Source of the DNA: Centruroides sculpturatus
Lineage: Eukaryota
Assembly (NCBI RefSeq): GCF_000671375.1
Contig: NW_019385413.1
Location: forward strand, 133,135 to 143,892
Length of the DNA: 10,758 nucleotides
Direction: 5' to 3'
Part shown: positions 1 to 10,758 of the stretch, piece by piece
How the letters are laid out: the number at the start of each line of letters is the position of its first letter
Numbering within the stretch: the first letter of the stretch is position 1
Notes under the pieces: generated by a model
Told to the model about the DNA's origin: nothing
Seen by the model: only the letters and a program-made list of their open reading frames with translations
The model's database searches: none
Translations under genes and position numbers: made by a program

Positions 1-61
1 TAATATGCACTTAAACTTAAAAGAATTTTAAAGAAAAATTGAATATTTAATAACTTCTAAC

Positions 62-257
62 CTGAAACAAAACTTCTCCAGGATATAAAGGAAAAGGATC
101 TTGCTGTAATCTTATTTCTAAGTCAGCATGTCGCAGTTTACTTTGACCATATAGATCATATTGAATAATTCCATCATTGTCTCTTATCACAGGATTTTGT
201 ATCACACAATAATGACCTGGAGGAACAATGATCATTTTTTCAGGTCCCAAAATAACT
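62..257 (-). CDS. MVP: Major vault protein (MVP), second coding exon. Its acceptor TTTTCAG sits at the high-coordinate end and its donor CAG|GTTAGA at the low-coordinate end. Phase 2 on entry.
   Basis: The minus-strand translation is (R)[65 protein letters not shown]. It aligns with the human MVP N-terminal MVP repeat (…[65 protein letters not shown]…). The six-frame ORF at 47..250 (-) carries this exon. Homology breaks exactly at a good 5' splice site (…TTTCAG|gttagaagt). A polypyrimidine tract plus AG lies just upstream of position 257. The split codon AG|A encodes the conserved Arg of 'NER'. Confidence 0.85.
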
Positions 258-2289
258 CTGAAAATATTTAATTATAAAATTTTATTTAAAAATTATAGTA
301 TTTATTTCTATTATACATAAAACAAATTGGTATTATGATGGCCTCTACTGTAAGTTTTTACAAAGTGAATTGATTTTTATGTTAGAAAAATCTAGACCAC
401 TAGGAAGTCACTGCAGAATATCTCAAAATGGTTTATTGTTGCTGAAAATGTATAAAAATCCAAATTTTATTGAACAAAAGTAACTCAAAGGTATCAAAAT
501 ATAATGTACAAAAAAAAAAAGGAGGAGGAAATTGTCCAAAAGTTAAGGATTAAAAGTTAAGTTTAGTTTTAATGTTACAGAAACTCCTGTTCCTGTAACA
601 TCAAAACTAAACTTTAGAATAAAAAAAGTTCATAAAATGATCAAATTTTTTCATAGAGACTGGATTACACTCATCCCTCATTTTGTCACCCTCATAAATA
701 TCACTCCCTCAGTTCTGTCACTGTTTGGTTAAGACCGTGCAACTTGATTTTGTCACTTTCCTAAATTGTGTTACCTAAAATTATCAAAAAATAACTAAGA
801 TAATAAAATCATGTTTTATTTATACCAGGCATGGACAAATGCGGCTCTTTTTGAGTTACATGCGCTCTTGCTGAAAGTGTTAATTTCTGCTTTTTATTAT
901 TATTATTCTTACAATTTTATTTCCACAATTTTGTGAAAATATGTTTATTAAAAAATTCAATATTTGTTTTATATTATTATATTATATAATAAAATCATGG
1001 TACAGAACTGCGATACAGAATAAAAAAGTACAGAACTGCGGCTCCCATGCATTTTGCAAAACCTACATTTCAGCTCCCACTGAACTCTTGCTTGCCCACC
1101 CCTGATTTATACTCTTATATTATATAAGTAATATTCTATTATAAGGTACTTTAATTAGTAGGTTCAATGCTTGTTAATTAATTTAACAGAATTGATTGCT
1201 TAGAATCCATTTTAACTCCAGTTCTGTCTTCTACTCATAAGATGAAAATATACAGGAATTAGAAGAGAGAAGAACATTTTTAGATGGCACCACAATTATG
1301 GGAAGAAAATAAAACGAAAACCTGCATTTGCAACTTTGTGAAAGTTGGTTTAGGTTGTTGTTATTGCAGTAAATGTGCACTCCTACAATTGTATTCTTTT
1401 CAGAAGTAAGTCTTTTTATATTTCTATATTTTTATATCTTTTATATTCTACAGTCACATTTACATGTGTTCTATTGTAACTTTTTTAGAAACTTGTGAAA
1501 TATTTGGTTCCGTTTAGATTTATATTTGACTTGATCCCGATTTGAATTTTACTATTTATTCTGTCTGAAGTGTTCCTAATTGTCCATTTCCATGAAATTT
1601 TCAGACATTTAGTTGTATATATTGTCCAACATCCATTTGCAGAAAACATTCCAGCCCAAAGTGAGAGGACCTGTTGTTTTGTCTCAATGTACTGTACCTG
1701 CAAAACTGATTCCATTAGTTACATTGAACATTTTGATAAAAAAGGCATTAAATGGCTGTTTAAAACAAAAGCTATCAAAGATTCTTTATATAAAATACAA
1801 AAGATCTAATCTAATCTACTCAAAATTGGCATTTTTCAGTATTGTTCTCTAATCTGAATTATCCAACTTGAAGCTTGAAGTTTTTTTTCCTGCACCTTTC
1901 AAATTACAGAAGTTTTATTGTATTTCATTATTTACATGATTTATTTATTTTTAAAAGTAAATAAAAAACATTAATAAAAATAAATAATAATAATTTTAAT
2001 GTATTAAAAATAAACAGTTTTTGATTTATAATTGTATATTGGAATAAATATACATTGAATAGTAGAGAAGAAAAAGAATATACATTGGCAAAAGAAAATT
2101 TCAAATCATCAGTAAAAAAAATATTTTATAAAGCTCAAAATTCTAAGAATAAACTGTTTGACAAATCAATTAATTACAGCTTAAAATTAATATGGTGTAG
2201 AGAGTAATAATACAATTTAATTTTATATATAACTTGTATTATGAGATAAGTTTAAACAAACCTGAACAAAGCTGTAATAATTTTCTTAC
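258..2289 (-). other. Intron between the two MVP coding exons, GT…AG, phase 2. It contains AT-rich low-complexity sequence and repeat-like segments.
   Basis: Bounded by the GTAAGA donor (2289-2284, minus strand) and the TTTTCAG acceptor (ending at 258). The two flanking exons give a continuous MVP alignment only when this interval is spliced out. Confidence 0.75.
559..614. repeat. Hairpin / inverted repeat inside the MVP intron, with 22-bp arms (1 mismatch) and a 12-nt loop.
   Basis: AAGTTTAGTTTTAATGTTACAG (559-580) pairs with CTGTAACATCAAAACTAAACTT (593-614). Confidence 0.6.
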
Positions 2290-2432
2290 CTTTCATTTTC
2301 CTTGCGAATATATGTCTGTGGACCGACTTCCACTCTTGTGACATTTGATGTCTGGTCCAAAACATGTAAATAATAATACGGTGGGATCCGATAGATACTC
2401 TCCTCATTGCGATTATGCTTTTGAGAGGTCAT
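2290..2432 (-). CDS. MVP: Major vault protein (MVP), first coding exon with the initiator ATG (revcomp of 2430-2432) and donor AAAG|GTAAGA at 2289.
   Basis: The minus-strand translation from the ATG is [47 protein letters not shown] + 'AG'. It aligns with the human MVP N-terminus ([42 protein letters not shown]…). The exon ends in a consensus GTAAGA donor. The trailing AG joins the leading A of exon 62-257 to give Arg, so frame and phase are consistent across the ~2.03-kb intron. The exon is too short (47 codons) to appear in the ≥60-aa ORF track. Confidence 0.8.
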
Positions 2433-2794
2433 TTTGCCAACTAAACAATATAGAAAACATTAGAAAATAATTCAAATTTCATATAAATTTTGTATGATTT
2501 AAATTTAAAAATTCTTTATTATTTGGATTATACAGAATTTTAATTTAATATGCTGGTCAACACAGAAAATATTTAAAAACTTCTATAGCTTTAACACAGT
2601 AACTTCCATAATCAACTAAGTTTATAATCATAGAAATAATTAAATTTATAAGTAAAGATACTAAACAATGTACCCAAATATATTTGTTATATAATTATAT
2701 AGTTCTAATTAATTTTGAGATAAAATGAAAGACAGAAAGCAATTTTAACTTTTTAAACATTAATAATTCAAATCACTTCAAGGTCTTTTAATTA

Positions 2795-2808
2795 ATATAT
2801 ATATATAT
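2795..2808. repeat. (AT)7 dinucleotide microsatellite.
   Basis: TTAATATATATATATATG read directly. Confidence 0.7.
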
Positions 2809-4982
2809 GTACAATTTGTCTTAAAAGTTTATAGAATTCAATTTCTTATAGAAATTCCTTTAATTTCTCTTCAATGTGTTGCTAAATTTTGTGTACTTTT
2901 AAAAATTAACCTCTTTCAAACTTTTAATTGTCTAGGATGGAACTTCTTCAGGACAAGAAAACACTAGGAGGCTGGCACTTTTCATACCTTTCTAGCACAA
3001 AAATTTGTTAAATAATTGCTTCAGTAAAGTATGTTTTTTCATAATTTTAAAATCCAAAATCACTCTAGTCTTATATCAAATAAAACTGTTAAGATTAAAT
3101 GTAATCAGAAGGAAATCTTTTTTTTAAAAAAAAAAAAATTAATGTTTGCTTGAAAACATTTAAAAAATTAGAATAAAATTAGTAATTATTCTAAAAATTT
3201 GTTTATCTAATTCAAAAGAAACCTGAGAAACACCACATTAAATAGTAAAAATTCATGATGATTAACAACATTAAAAAGGTAATATAAAAACAAGCATTAC
3301 AAAAATATATTTTTTCTGACTAAAAATATACATTTGATTTCGTGTGTAAAAGTAAACAGCATAAATCATACTTAACAAAATTTTTTTTTACTTAAACATT
3401 AAACTTATCATTGAAATATATTAAAAAATTATTTAAAATACTTGTTCAGATGAGCAATTAAAACAGATTATTATTTATATAAAATCTCAGTCAACGATCT
3501 TTAAAATATTACTGAAATTTATATATTAATGCTGAAAATGTCAAAATGACATCCTTGTCAGTGGATATATATTATTCATTGTTTACTGGCAATGATCCAA
3601 TATCTAAGGAAGTAGATCAATGTGGCAGCATTCAAGAAAAACAAAAATCAATGATTTCCTTACAATTTTTTCCAAAATTAAGTACCGTACATTGTAAACT
3701 TGACGCAAAAATAATCGGAATTTTTTTAAAAATTATTCTAATTAAAAAATAATTTCAGAATCAAACTTTAAAATCTTATTGTAATTTTTCATTCTAATCA
3801 TATTGAATGACTGATCTAAATTATACAATGAAAAATTAAATTTAAAAATTTTATAGATAAGACTGCACATTAAAAAATTAAATAATTTTTTAATCATTTA
3901 AACTTTTTTTGTTTGCATTTTTTAAAATTTAAATTACAATTGTGTCCATAATTATAAATTTTAAAATTAATTTTTATGCAGAACTTCTACACTTTCATAT
4001 ATTTCAACTTTGATTTTAAAAACTTAATTCTTATCAGCTTACAAGTATCTATCTAAAGCTATTATAACACTATTAAGGTGATTACTGAACAGATGCCAAA
4101 TTTTTGACATATTTAAAATCCATATTTGATTTAAGAAGAGATGGTTAAATATTTATACAAATTAAAAATTGAAGAAAAATGTTTTAAATAGCCATTAACT
4201 TCATTATAAATAATAAATTTTGAGAATTTTTCCTATAATTATCATAATAATATCCTTTTATCATAGAAAATTTTCAATTTAGAAAGCTCAATAATTAATT
4301 ATTTTTCTTTTATTTAAAATCAAAATGTTTTGAATGAAATTTAACAAATATACATTTAAATTATATCATAAATTTGAATTAAAAAAAATCTATTGAGTTA
4401 CTAATCAATAATTTATATAAGATTTATATTCCAAATTATTCTGAGGTTTATAAAAATTTTTTTGGATTTAAAAATAATAATTAATAGGTTTTAGGTAAAT
4501 GTATTGTTTGTTTGTTTATTTAACCTAATGATAATAAATAAAAATAATATATAAAATTCTTTTTATCTCCAAATGTTCAGAATTAAAAATCAGTATATTA
4601 TACATAATTACAATAATAAATAATTTACAGTAATTTGAAATTTTAGTATTATTAAAATCTAAAATGAAATTGGAAGTACCACAATATACAATTTTAAAGA
4701 AAAAAAAAATATTACAGTAAAACCTTGATTTAAAAATGGACAAAATTTCCGGTCCATCTGTCATGTGTAAATGAACAACCTGCTAATTACATATAAAATT
4801 CATTTGAAAATTAACAAGTTTTTTCCAAATCCAAGAGTGTTAAATATTTTTAATATATTGGTAAAACTTAATTTAAGTAAAAGATGAACATGTTACTACT
4901 AAAAGTTTTATCAGAAATAAAAATGTAAAACAAAATTCTGTATCTCTACTATAGACAAATATAGTTATGTATATAGATAGAT

Positions 4983-5050
4983 CAAACTGCCAGTGTTCAG
5001 GGTACAAAGACTGACCAAGCAGTCTTTGTAATCTGAACACTGGCAGTTTG
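4983..5050. other. Near-perfect 68-nt hairpin: two 31-nt arms (2 mismatches) around the loop ACCAAG (5014-5019). It could be a pre-miRNA-like or foldback structure.
   Basis: CAAACTGCCAGTGTTCAGGGTACAAAGACTG (4983-5013) pairs with CAGTCTTTGTAATCTGAACACTGGCAGTTTG (5020-5050). It lies directly upstream of the GC-richer repeat copy at 5050-5200. Confidence 0.6.
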
Positions 5051-5200
5051 GTCATGGGTTAACCACCTCGCTTGGACAGGCTAGCCACGTGGAGTTTTCC
5101 AGGTTTTCTCAAAGTCTGTTAGCACCTAAATAGGGGCCAGTTTCCCTTAAAAAGATCTTCCGGAAGGCATCCCCTAGGCAGATCACCCAAGTGTTGCATT
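5050..5200 (+). repeat. Interspersed repeat copy A. It is GC-richer than its surroundings and homologous to 10225-10362.
   Basis: Shared collinear blocks with copy B. Examples are GCTTGG…GTGGAGTTTTCCAGGTTTTCTC vs GCTTGG…GTGGATTTTCCGGGTTATCTTCTC, then AGTTTCCC, then CCCCTAGGCAGATCACCCAAGTG vs CCCCTAGACAGATCGCCACGTG. My estimate by eye is ~65-70% identity, same orientation. Confidence 0.55.
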
Positions 5201-6515
5201 GCCATAACTTAAACATAAAACATCAACCACTGCAGGGAGAGAGAAGATATCTTTCCTATTTTCTTCAGACTGTTTGTTCAATACATTAAAAGAAACTGCT
5301 CTTTTGAATTATTGAAAATATTTAAAAAGTACAGTATTTACTTTGATTATTATTATATTTTATATACTGATGTTTACTACTACTTAACATTCTTTCAATA
5401 TAACTAAAAATTAAATGTATACTGGAAGAATTGTCAAGTATTTCACAACTGATCTCATTTATTTAAGAGAGTGAAGCTTAGGATTCTTCAATAATGTTGG
5501 CAAAAAACATTTTTGCCAATGTTAAGTGTCACTCTTAAACAAAGAATGAGTTAAATAGTTTATTGAAAAATATTTAATTCATCTTCCATATACTTGACAC
5601 AGTAACCAGATTTAAGCTAATTAATTTTCATTGTGAGAGTTTTGTATAGATCACATATATACAACTTTAAAGCCAGAACAGATATTTGCCTTAATTTTTA
5701 TAATGTTAATGAAGTATAACAAAATATGACTTATAAAAATTTGAGTCTTAAATTTGTTAAACTTAAAACACAAAAATATAATAATAATATAAAAATTACA
5801 AATAATATTTTTTATCTTATAAAATTTTATTTTTAATTTAAGGTTAGAATTTTTCTTGAAAAATGTATTTATTATTTAACTTTGACCTTAACATTTCTGT
5901 TTGCCAGAGATTATATATTAAATGCATGACAATATCATGTTGACTCAATGATATTTGATATCAGCAGAAATAGTTAAAGATTAACGAATATAGATTTCAT
6001 TTCTTACTTAATTAAATTTATGTTGATAACTTTTTATTGAAACAAGTCTATCTTTAATTGGAATAAATCTAAAAATGATGAAATAAAGAATATTAATATA
6101 CAAATTTTCAAAGCTTTATAATAGTATCAGTTTTTACAACATGTATATTATGTTTATTGTTAATGTGTTATAAATAGATCATGTATAATTTTCAATATAT
6201 TTAATTGAGAAGTGATGAAAACTTTATGGTTAATAACAATTCCATTCACTTATGTTTTCTTCTTTATTACTTTATGATGATAATACCTTATGTAGTTTTC
6301 AAAAATTTTTAAATATACACTTAAAACTGTTTTATTTCTGAATGTAAAATGTAATTGTTTTATCTATCCATTTTCCAAAATGATATCAAAACTAGTTTCT
6401 TCAATTGTACTTGATTGCCTTTTGTTCTCATTGTAATCATTATGAGTAAGCATAAAATTGCTTGAGAGAAGAATCATACAGGAATACAATTAAGATAAAT
6501 ATCCATCTTAATTGA

Positions 6516-6559
6516 TTTTATTGGTTTCTAAGGATATATATCCTTAGAAACCAATAAAA
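6516..6559. repeat. Perfect 44-bp palindrome (TTTTATTGGTTTCTAAGGATAT|ATATCCTTAGAAACCAATAAAA).
   Basis: Positions 6516-6537 are the exact reverse complement of 6538-6559. Complementarity stops immediately outside (a/g). Confidence 0.8.
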
Positions 6560-6940
6560 GCCTGTATATTAATTGTATTTCAGTTCTCTCAATTTTATGA
6601 TTAATCATAGTTTCATTAATTTATTAGTTAAGGAACTATAACTTGAGGACTGACATTCCACGAAAATACTATTATATTACATTTAGTTTATTTTAAAGCC
6701 ATTTTTTAATAGTTTACAGGATCTAGTGTAAAGGGAGGTGCAAGTTAAAATTTAATATGAATGAATTACTACACATTCTAATTCTGGTTGCTTTTAATAC
6801 TTATATAGATTACTATTATCAGGCACTCTGAGCCTCTCCCTTCATAATGGAAGATGTAAAAGTTAATAGAAATGCTAAATATGGAAAAGTCCACAATTAA
6901 GTTATTCAACTAATAAACTTAGATTGTGGTATTATCAGGG

Positions 6941-6978
6941 AGGGGCCCAGACAGACCCCTTAAACCCCTCCCTGATTA
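6941..6978. repeat. GC-rich short hairpin: ATCAGGGAGGGG … CCCCTCCCTGAT arms around GGGGCCCAGACAGACCCC.
   Basis: 12-bp perfect inverted arms (6942-6953 and 6967-6978). It is a conspicuous G/C-rich island in AT-rich DNA. Confidence 0.5.
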
Positions 6979-7180
6979 TGTTAGTAATCTTTTTGGGTAT
7001 CATTAAAAATATACAAAAAGATATTTAATTATTTAATATTAAATAAAAACTATACTCATTTCCAGAAAAGAACTTTTGTTGTTCAATTATATTTGTTCTT
7101 TTAAATTAAATAAATTGTATAATCATACATAAAAATAAACAAAAATACATAAATTATTCAAATATGTTCGTAATAAGCTA

Positions 7181-7335
7181 TCACTACTAGGTGCTTATAC
7201 AGACACTTGGCAATTCTGCCATCAACTTTTATTCGGGAATTTTCTTATTTAGAAAACGTGTCTCAGCAAATAAGAAAATTCACAAATAAAAGTTGATGAC
7301 AGAATTGCCAAGTCTGTATAAGAACCTAGTAGTGA
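7181..7335. mobile_element. Stowaway-like (Tc1/mariner-type) MITE. It has ~52-bp terminal inverted repeats, an internal sub-palindrome, and TA target-site duplications at 7179-7180 and 7336-7337.
   Basis: Left end TCACTACTAGGTGCTTATACAGACACTTGGCAATTCTGCCATCAACTTTTATT. Right end is its near-perfect reverse complement (AATAAAAGTTGATGACAGAATTGCCAAGTCTGTATAAGAACCTAGTAGTGA). Both ends are flanked by TA. The internal spacer is also palindromic (GAATTTTCTTATTT…AAATAAGAAAATTC). The element is 155 bp with no coding capacity, which fits a non-autonomous element. Confidence 0.65.
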
Positions 7336-8619
7336 TAAATTATTCAAACAAAGGAAGACAGTTTCAGAATATATTACAAGTACTCATGTTATTATTATAT
7401 TTTATTTGTACAGATTATTACGTTTATTTTCTTAAAATAAAGAAAGACATTTTGTTTTATAATCTATACTTTTTGTTGTGCAAAATGAAAGTTTCCCTCT
7501 TAATCAATAACTGACTGATATAAAAAAATACATTTCCTTCATTGCTTAATTTAAGTTATAAGTTAGGAAATATGTAAAATGGACTGTCTAGAAATAAAAT
7601 AAATATTTTTAATAAAAGCATATAAATTATTTTCAAATTTATATTCAATATAATAAATATGAGCTTCTAGTTTATATGTGAATAGGTTATTCTCTTCCAA
7701 GATCAAAATATATATTAAATTTATTATGAATTTATGAAATTGCTTGTTGAATTGCATCATCTTAAGTATTACTCATGAAGCTTTGATAACCAGAGTTAGA
7801 AACTAGTTAAAAAAAAAAAAACAAAAAACAAAAGCTTTATCAAACCTATTGCTTACTAGTTTCATCACTCAGTTTAGACAATCTTTCAGATGATCAGGAA
7901 CATACATAAATAAGCTAAGCTTGATTTTTCTATATTGCAAACGAATACTTTATATTCATAGTATGAAATACATGCCAACCTTATTAATATTTTTAGTCAG
8001 AAAAGTTCATTTAAATATATATTTTTTCATAAAACATATCACAACAGGTATCAGATTCATTATGCATCAATTTAATCAGAGCCTATCAAATACAAATTCT
8101 TTTTGATCTAATTGGTTTCAAATAAAGCATTTGCATTTTTTGTAAATAACATATTTTAAAATGTAAATCCTATACAATATGTGAAGTTAATTTTGATCAA
8201 ATGTAGAATTGTTTAATAATTCATTCAACAACATAGTTTCTAGATTGAAATTTTTATGTTGAGAACAATGTTTTGTATTTGTAAATCTTATTAAAAATTT
8301 ATAAAGGATTTCTTAAAACTTAATTTACAGGATTCTTTCGAGCAGTTATATTTTTAATATGAAAAGATACTATAAAGGAAAAAAAAAGGAATTTTATTCA
8401 TTCATTCTTTATAATAAACTACAAAAACTAACAAAGAACAGAAAACTTCAATTATGCCATAAAAAATATTAAAGCTATTGAATTCTGCTTTTAGAAATAA
8501 ATATTTACTTTATCGTTATTATAATGTTATTTTTGCTAACAGAAAATAAAACTCTTTAAGTCTGCTTTTATATTAATAAAGAAACATTTTATGTACTTCA
8601 TTTATTACAGAAAAAAATA

Positions 8620-9260
8620 TGACTAAAAAAGGGACCCAAAGACAAAAGGGGCTCAGGGCTCAGTCTACCACTAGACCCAATACAAGCTCTTGATAGTCCT
8701 GGTTATTTGTTAAATAGCATTAAGTTTAGATAACAGAACAATTGTTTCTGAAGTGTTGCATAATGAACTGTAACGTTTGTCATTGATCTGCCCATTATAT
8801 GTGTGATTAATACTGTATTGTAATGCCAAATACTATACAATTCCTTATTACAATAACAAGGGTTGACCAAGCATACCACATTATGTAATTTTGGGGTACG
8901 TATGATGGCGTTGCTATGCATTACAGAGGGGTGGAATGGTAGTTATAAGTATAAAAACAGCATTATGGGCCATTCAAGTATTACATCAGCAAAAATTTGC
9001 CCTTTTTTTCGATCCCTTCTCCATTATCACCAGTCACCAAAAAACCAAGGTACCCCTTGCTTCTATGTCATAAACCAGAAGTTAAAACTATCCACAAATA
9101 TACAAGAATTATTTTCAGACATTTTTGTGATGAAAAATAAACAACGGGTGGGGATTTTACGTCATCAAAGATTCACACTCCCTCCCCATCCCCCTAAACG
9201 AATCTTCCTTCCCCCATAAACTAGTGACGTCATACTTGGTCCCTTAAGTGATTTATGGAC
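8620..9260. other. Compositional island, GC-richer than its flanks. It contains a perfect CRE palindrome TGACGTCA (9225-9232), a second TTACGTCAT (9158-9166), and a C-rich polypyrimidine run (9180-9218). Possibly a degenerate transposable-element remnant or a distal regulatory block.
   Basis: The composition shift is visible by eye and the motifs are read directly. The 118-aa ORF 8863-9219 (+) is low-complexity and resembles no protein family I recognise. Confidence 0.25.
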
Positions 9261-9303
9261 GATCCTATTGGTTTAAAATATAAATTAAAAAAAAAACAAT
9301 TAT

Positions 9304-9465
9304 CTTAAAGTAATTATTTTAAAGTTTACTCGCTTTTATAAAGTTAAAATCTCTACAATAATTAATTATAGAAAATGTAAAAATCTAAAAGTAATTATTT
9401 TAAAGTTTACTCGCTTTTATAAAGTTAAAATCTCTACAATAATTAATTATAGAAAATGTAACTTC
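9304..9465. repeat. Tandem duplication of two 81-bp AT-rich units.
   Basis: 9307-9380 is identical base-for-base to 9388-9461 (74 bp). There is one mismatch at the unit start (cTTaaag vs cTAaaag), and the copies diverge after …GAAAATGTAA. Confidence 0.85.
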
Positions 9466-9796
9466 GTAAACATTATTGAGGATTAATGTTAAGCTTCGTT
9501 TTGTCAACAGCAGCAAAGATAAAAAGGAAAAACTTAAGTAAAGCTGAATATATCGAAGTATGCTGTCAATTAAACGAGATTTTCTTTCGACGTATTAAAA
9601 GTTTCTATAATATTTTAGAAGGAAAACTTTTATGCAGTACTTTAAATCTATTAAAGACACTACATAAAGATTTTGATTTGTTTTAAAGATTTATTTTTCC
9701 TATCATTTTACAGCATATTACTTAATTAAAACTTGAAAAATGGAGATAGTAATTAAATTAATATTATAAAAATATCAAAGACTTATTGAGAATAAT

Positions 9797-9832
9797 TAAA
9801 TTTATTATGGATTGAAAATCCTATAATCCATA
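9797..9832. repeat. Small palindromic hairpin TTATTATGGATT-(11 nt)-AATCCATAATAA.
   Basis: 12-bp perfect inverted arms visible directly in the sequence. Confidence 0.5.
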
Positions 9833-10173
9833 ATAACAGTCTGATTTTACTTTCTGCTGTGTCAGTAGTGCCAGTATTGGTACCACAAATAGTCAGTCCG
9901 GTAAAATTTTGTTTTTAATTTAATTGCACAAGAAGTGAAGCTTAATAAAATATTTTAAAATTCTGTAATAAAGATAAATGTAATTTTGTAGTTATTTTTA
10001 GACTAAATATGGTCTTTGCATTATCTGTGTTTTATTATAAACACCTAAATTGCCCGAATTTGATTGGGAGTTTCTTACAAATAAAGCACCTAGGGTTTAC
10101 TTACATTATGCATGTTTACTAGATACTCGCCAATATTTTAATTCGCGAAAGAGTGAACGAGTTTACGCACACC

Positions 10174-10189
10174 CACACACACACACACA
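10174..10189. repeat. (CA)n microsatellite of about 8 units.
   Basis: ACCCACACACACACACACAG read directly from the sequence. Confidence 0.8.
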
Positions 10190-10224
10190 GCGAGTACCAA
10201 TTACACTGGGCTAATAAATTCACT

Positions 10225-10362
10225 TGCCAGGCACGAACTTTCGTGTTTTCGTGCTTGGCTAACAAGCTGGTGAGGTGGATTTTCCGGGTTATCTTCTCGT
10301 TATCTAACGTAATATGATTCAGTTTCCCGTAGACACCCCCCCCTAGACAGATCGCCACGTGT
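10225..10362 (+). repeat. Interspersed repeat copy B, homologous to 5050-5200. It is preceded by a short hairpin GCCAGGCACGAA…TTCGTGCTTGGC at 10226-10259.
   Basis: See copy A. The 87-aa ORF 10119..10382 (-) lies over this repeat and is therefore unlikely to be a gene. Confidence 0.55.
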
Positions 10363-10758
10363 AAACAAATAAACCAAACCAAATTGCTTGCAATTCTCTT
10401 ATTACTCGGTAGTAGCAGGGTACAATACGCTTCAGTGTTGCTAGCAGTGGCGTAATTCCACTACGCATAGCTATTTTTAGCCCGTTTAATCGGCGTAATG
10501 ACGGCAGTGCAAAATTAATATAAAAGTAACTATAATCGTTGCAAAAAAGATTATTTTATGCACATTTCGAATTTTAACCAAACTATAGCGACTAAGAGAA
10601 AGGGAAATCTTTGATTAACTTTTTCATATGTTTCTCCTTCTCTTGTTTTCCTCCACACCATCTTCAAGTATTTTTTCTGAATAGAAACAAATATAATTTT
10701 CGCCTGAACTACTTTATTAAAAATCGTTACTTTAGAGATTTTCCTAGTTAGAGCGTAA

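Follow-up and report, generated by a model that had tools for sequence, protein, structure and literature searches.

First two coding exons of a probable major vault protein gene in the scorpion Centruroides sculpturatus

Seventy-eight major vault protein (MVP) chains form the shell of the vault particle, and the N-terminal repeats of the protein line the waist where the half-vaults meet. In a sequence-only reading of the 10,758-nt stretch of Centruroides sculpturatus DNA analysed here (referred to as the window), the 5′ end of an MVP gene had been placed on the minus strand, and its presence had been taken to identify the DNA as metazoan. The locus raises the question of whether two short open stretches separated by about 2 kb are indeed the beginning of an MVP gene, whether they are joined as proposed, and which organism and which gene copy they represent. 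Our preferred answer, which we hold to be very probable, is that positions 1–2432 (minus strand) carry the 5′ end of a nuclear MVP gene of C. sculpturatus or a very close relative, with a 2-kb phase-2 intron between its two coding exons, which together encode the first 113 residues of the protein (repeat domains R1 and R2). The elements of this gene model are as follows, with splice sites marked by a slash:

2432..2290, minus strand: MVP coding exon 1, 143 nt (47 codons plus 2 nt), with the ATG at 2432–2430, reading MTSQ...IRKENE
258..2289, minus strand: intron 1, a phase-2 intron of 2,032 nt that begins with GTAAGA (5′ end) and finishes with TTTTCAG (3′ end)
257..62, minus strand: MVP coding exon 2, 196 nt (1 nt plus 65 codons), reading (R)VILGPEK...PGEVLFQ
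1..61, minus strand: start of intron 2, with the donor CAG/GTTAGA (GT at 61–60); read on beyond this donor, the frame gives four codons (VRSY) and then a stop
2433..2462, minus strand: 5′ leader of the ATG exon, with a candidate acceptor ttctaatgttttctatattgtttag/TTGGCAAA ending 8 nt before the ATG

Exon 1 encodes most of repeat domain R1, and exon 2 encodes the end of R1 together with R2. Joined, they amount to 339 nt and an uninterrupted frame of 113 codons that ends in ...PGEVLFQ. The donor of intron 1 reads AG/GTAAGA (GT at 2289–2288) and its acceptor TTTTCAG/A (AG at 259–258), so that the canonical phase-2 intron described in the sequence-only reading lies exactly where it had been placed. 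The codon split between the exons is AG+A (Arg), and the intron is therefore in phase 2. The peptide printed in that reading was exact except at its end, where the last two residues (FQ), although encoded within the exon coordinates given there, had been left out. Both exons are richer in GC (0.40 for exon 1 and 0.34 for exon 2) than intron 1 (0.26) and the window as a whole (25%). As had been pointed out, the list of open reading frames registers the gene only through ORF 47..250 on the minus strand, which catches exon 2; exon 1 is missing from the list because reading through its own donor leads immediately to a TAA.

Upstream of the start codon, an in-frame TAA at 2462–2460 lies nine codons ahead of the ATG, and therefore no further coding extension is available within the ATG exon. 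The 30-nt leader contains a branch-like ctaat and a T-rich tract followed by an AG at 2442–2441. This candidate acceptor, ttctaatgttttctatattgtttag, may point to a non-coding upstream exon, with the caveat that T-rich motifs ending in AG are common by chance in a genome of 25% GC. An out-of-frame ATG is present at 2460–2458 and would be removed if the acceptor at 2442–2441 were used.

Searching the 113-residue product against the PDB (phmmer, 177,635 sequences) returned seven matches with E-values from 2.4e-47 to 1.7e-45, all seven of them MVP and none a different protein. They comprise the human, rat and mouse proteins (the rat vault structure 4V60, 2QZV, 3GF5 and others). The alignment is gapless between query residues 9–111 and MVP residues 3–105, with 70 of 103 positions identical (68%); the part encoded by exon 1 shares 29 of 39 residues with positions 3–41 of human MVP. 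The scorpion N-terminus is six residues longer than those of human and rat MVP, which begin MATEEF. Among Pfam families, Vault_2 matched residues 56–111 with 86.9 bits (E = 1.3e-24; gathering score 23.6) and exon 2 alone with 88.3 bits (E = 4.6e-25), while Vault_3 matched residues 14–42 of the exon 1 part, the R1 region, below threshold.

A BLASTP search of a collection of 5.8 billion proteins yielded 101 homologues (best E = 3.6e-75). Every homologue with a descriptive source name was named MVP, the two others being an ‘unnamed protein product’ and a ‘hypothetical protein’. Its top match, a C. sculpturatus protein (P0001), covers 58% of the query, corresponding to exon 2, and the next-best homologues are at most 75% identical. 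The predicted product of exons 1 and 2 is thus an N-terminal MVP segment, as had been proposed. One homologue comes from a cyanobacterium (P0063; Moorena sp. SIO1G6, annotated as ‘hypothetical protein’ on a contig of 194,592 nt) and retains the PFPLYP motif; its identity to the scorpion N-terminus amounts to 56% in the BLASTP local alignment and to 50% in the multiple alignment. Gut phages, too, are reported to carry MVP homologues (preprint, bioRxiv 10.1101/2023.11.10.566534).

The way in which the two exons are joined can be compared with the proteins and genes of other animals. In a multiple alignment with seven homologues that span the exon 1/exon 2 junction (from metagenomes, chimpanzee, a rotifer and the cyanobacterium), there was no indel at the junction, and the scorpion product conforms to the homologues at each of their 31 invariant columns. 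In the spider Trichonephila clavipes (MWRG01009801.1), the acceptor and the donor of exon 2 fall at identical codons and in identical phases: the spider exon is bounded by TTTGCAG/G-GTT-ATT and CAT-GTG/GTATGA, the scorpion exon by TTTTCAG/A-GTT-ATT and TTT-CAG/GTTAGA. The next spider MVP exon (QGVTPLTVV...) follows about 1 kb downstream of exon 2. At the protein level, exon 2 of the Trichonephila MVP (P0073) is 63% identical to that of the scorpion. The deposited spider model itself has a spurious N-terminal peptide in place of exon 1, and its end reads into an intron. The 10.3 kb that precede exon 2 in the spider locus (positions 1–10329), a stretch interrupted by two runs of N (1236–4300 and 5390–6970), yielded no counterpart of exon 1.

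Outside the arachnids, an exon boundary of human and rat MVP after GEVLEK matches the scorpion boundary after GEVLFQ. Two partial chimpanzee isoforms (P0013 and P0015) stop at, or skip from, GEVLEK, the codon that corresponds to scorpion GEVLFQ; the primate exon boundary is here deduced from these partial isoforms rather than from introns. A rotifer fragment reads on into non-homologous sequence after GEVLNQ, and a fragment from the sea cucumber Holothuria (P0101) diverges just after ...QDHER, at the position of the scorpion exon 1 donor. The intron positions and phases shared with the spider, the chimpanzee and Holothuria are those of an orthologous MVP gene structure. Judged from these alignments, both MVP intron positions appear to be old and common to animals, and would be shared between arachnids and deuterostomes. 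From this conservation we infer that exons 1 and 2 are spliced together; the gene is presumably also expressed. Within the 5.8-billion-protein collection, no protein was 100% identical across the exon 1/exon 2 junction, and exon 1 was absent at high identity from every protein searched.

Each MVP exon is present exactly once in the window, which holds neither a second copy of exon 2 nor any downstream MVP exon (R3–R9, MVP_shoulder, cap helix or cap ring). This absence fits the earlier proposal that the remainder of the gene lies outside the window past position 1, where the downstream exons would be expected to follow. No Pfam-detectable coding sequence was found within intron 1, and the ten longest stop-free segments outside the MVP exons gave nothing significant, the two best matches (E = 0.02 and 0.056) falling well short of the family cut-offs. 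An Rfam search (E ≤ 1) identified no family at its gathering score and no vault RNA in the window, its miRNA-family matches being sub-threshold and confined to palindromes; no tRNAs were found in the window either. Upstream of the ATG, the remaining 8.3 kb of the window are AT-rich and apparently non-coding. The other features of the window, two of which lie in intron 1, are repeats, hairpins and compositional patches:

559–614: hairpin in MVP intron 1, 56 nt with 26-nt arms (−33.9 kcal/mol, z = −10.0), with weak sub-threshold miRNA-family matches
990–1102: GC-richer piece of 113 nt in MVP intron 1, flanked by 25-nt direct repeats (965–989 and 1103–1127, 88% identical)
4980–5053: hairpin, 74 nt with 34-nt arms that are 91% complementary (−55.8 kcal/mol, z = −11.4), with sub-threshold Rfam matches only
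7172–7344: palindrome, nested and near-perfect, about 173 nt long, its 53-nt and 33-nt arms being 89–91% complementary
8857–9216, plus strand: longest stop-free segment, 120 codons, in a patch (8501–9500) of about 0.30 GC with overlapping frames on both strands
9280–9441: tandem duplication, two copies of an 81-nt unit that are 89% identical
10001–10500: most GC-rich stretch (GC 0.41), with a (CA)8 microsatellite at 10174–10189

The inner 150 nt of the palindrome (7172–7321) fold with −63.2 kcal/mol (z = −11.4). The palindrome gave only sub-threshold Rfam miRNA matches (43 bits vs a gathering score of 90) and has the appearance of a repeat of the foldback or MITE type. The hairpin at 4980–5053 lies within a GC-rich patch (5001–5500, GC 0.35), and the repeat-flanked piece of intron 1 (965–1127) looks like a small inserted element. 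For the longest stop-free segment, even the best Pfam match (E = 0.056) was not credible, and the segment may be what is left of a decayed repeat. No Pfam match was obtained for a 113-codon stop-free segment at 10122–10460 (minus strand).

The top protein match, P0001, is the RefSeq entry XP_023213982.1, annotated as ‘major vault protein-like, partial’ from C. sculpturatus, and it is identical to the window product at each of the 65 complete codons in exon 2. Its architecture is different. The RefSeq model comprises 128 aa, comes from a 7,393-nt contig, lacks exon 1 and has two tandem copies of exon 2 (VILGPEK..GEVL followed by VILGPEK..GEVLFQ), the copies being joined through a weak TT/GTTTCA donor, whereas the window has an intact exon 1 and a single copy of exon 2. 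As judged from the amino-acid sequences, the window gene and XP_023213982.1 are the same gene, alleles of it, or duplicate copies in the same species. The doubled exon 2 may have arisen as an artefact of assembly or from a haplotig, or may reflect a true duplication of the exon.

The doubling bears on the strongest of the alternatives, according to which the window holds a partial duplicate, a pseudogene fragment or a redundant haplotig with exons 1 and 2 only, and not a functional locus. With exon 2 appearing twice in XP_023213982.1, more than one copy exists in at least one assembly; the window, moreover, stops 61 nt past exon 2 and leaves the downstream exons outside, and an ancient whole-genome duplication took place in the Arachnopulmonates, which include the scorpions. 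The window carries 113 of about 850 expected MVP codons, too few to show whether the gene as a whole is intact. Within those codons, however, the ATG, donor and acceptor are intact, both exons are open, and the 31 invariant columns are all retained. Complete amino-acid identity to the RefSeq copy likewise points to the same locus, an allele or assembly redundancy rather than to decay. We therefore consider a non-functional fragment unlikely, and retain the reading of the locus as the 5′ end of an MVP gene.

If the tandem arrangement in XP_023213982.1 were real, the scorpion MVP gene would possess a duplicated R2 exon, either as mutually exclusive alternative exons or as an extra repeat domain that would alter the waist or barrel of the vault. 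The window shows one copy and ends 61 nt beyond it, and we regard a genuine duplication of this exon as quite improbable.

As to the source of the DNA, the sequence-only reading was right in naming a metazoan and went too far in deriving this from MVP alone. Its statement that MVP is missing from Drosophila, C. elegans and yeast agrees with the literature, in which vaults are reported to be absent from Saccharomyces cerevisiae, C. elegans, D. melanogaster and plants, and present in slime moulds, sea urchins, mammals and trypanosomes (PMC12547018). Their origin has been inferred to lie in the last eukaryotic common ancestor (LECA), followed by losses in insects, fungi, nematodes and plants (PMC12547018). 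Because this distribution reaches beyond animals to slime moulds and trypanosomes and, by inference, back to LECA, the step from MVP to Metazoa is too strong; the presence of MVP narrows the lineage without by itself identifying Metazoa.

The same distribution (PMC12547018), together with the 56% identity of the cyanobacterial P0063 (BLASTP local alignment), could suggest that the DNA stems from a non-metazoan eukaryote or a contaminant with an MVP homologue. Such an origin is highly improbable. The presence of a spliceosomal intron rules out bacteria and phages, the spider and primates have their introns at matching positions and in matching phases, and the low GC content resembles that of the spider locus (0.19 in the spider vs 0.25 in the window). 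The metazoan source follows from the 100% match to the scorpion protein and from the intron positions common to other animals. The match to the scorpion protein places the source among the arachnids, and almost certainly in C. sculpturatus, a buthid scorpion. Finally, the idea that both open frames resemble MVP merely by chance can be discarded, given E-values of 2.4e-47 among 177,635 sequences and 3.6e-75 among 5.8 billion, and a mean stop-free segment of just 11.8 codons in the window (95th percentile 37).

In its substance, the locus is an ordinary MVP gene that is already recorded for C. sculpturatus in RefSeq and partly annotated there. The sole new item is a detail of annotation, namely that the public model lacks exon 1 and has exon 2 doubled; to this fragmentary and internally duplicated model, the window adds the first coding exon and the start codon. 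The R1–R2 segment encoded here would form the half-vault interface end of scorpion MVP, and the complete protein would be expected to assemble into vaults in scorpion cells. The gene adds another data point to the distribution of the vault shell gene, which is kept in chelicerates, vaults having been lost in insects (PMC12547018).
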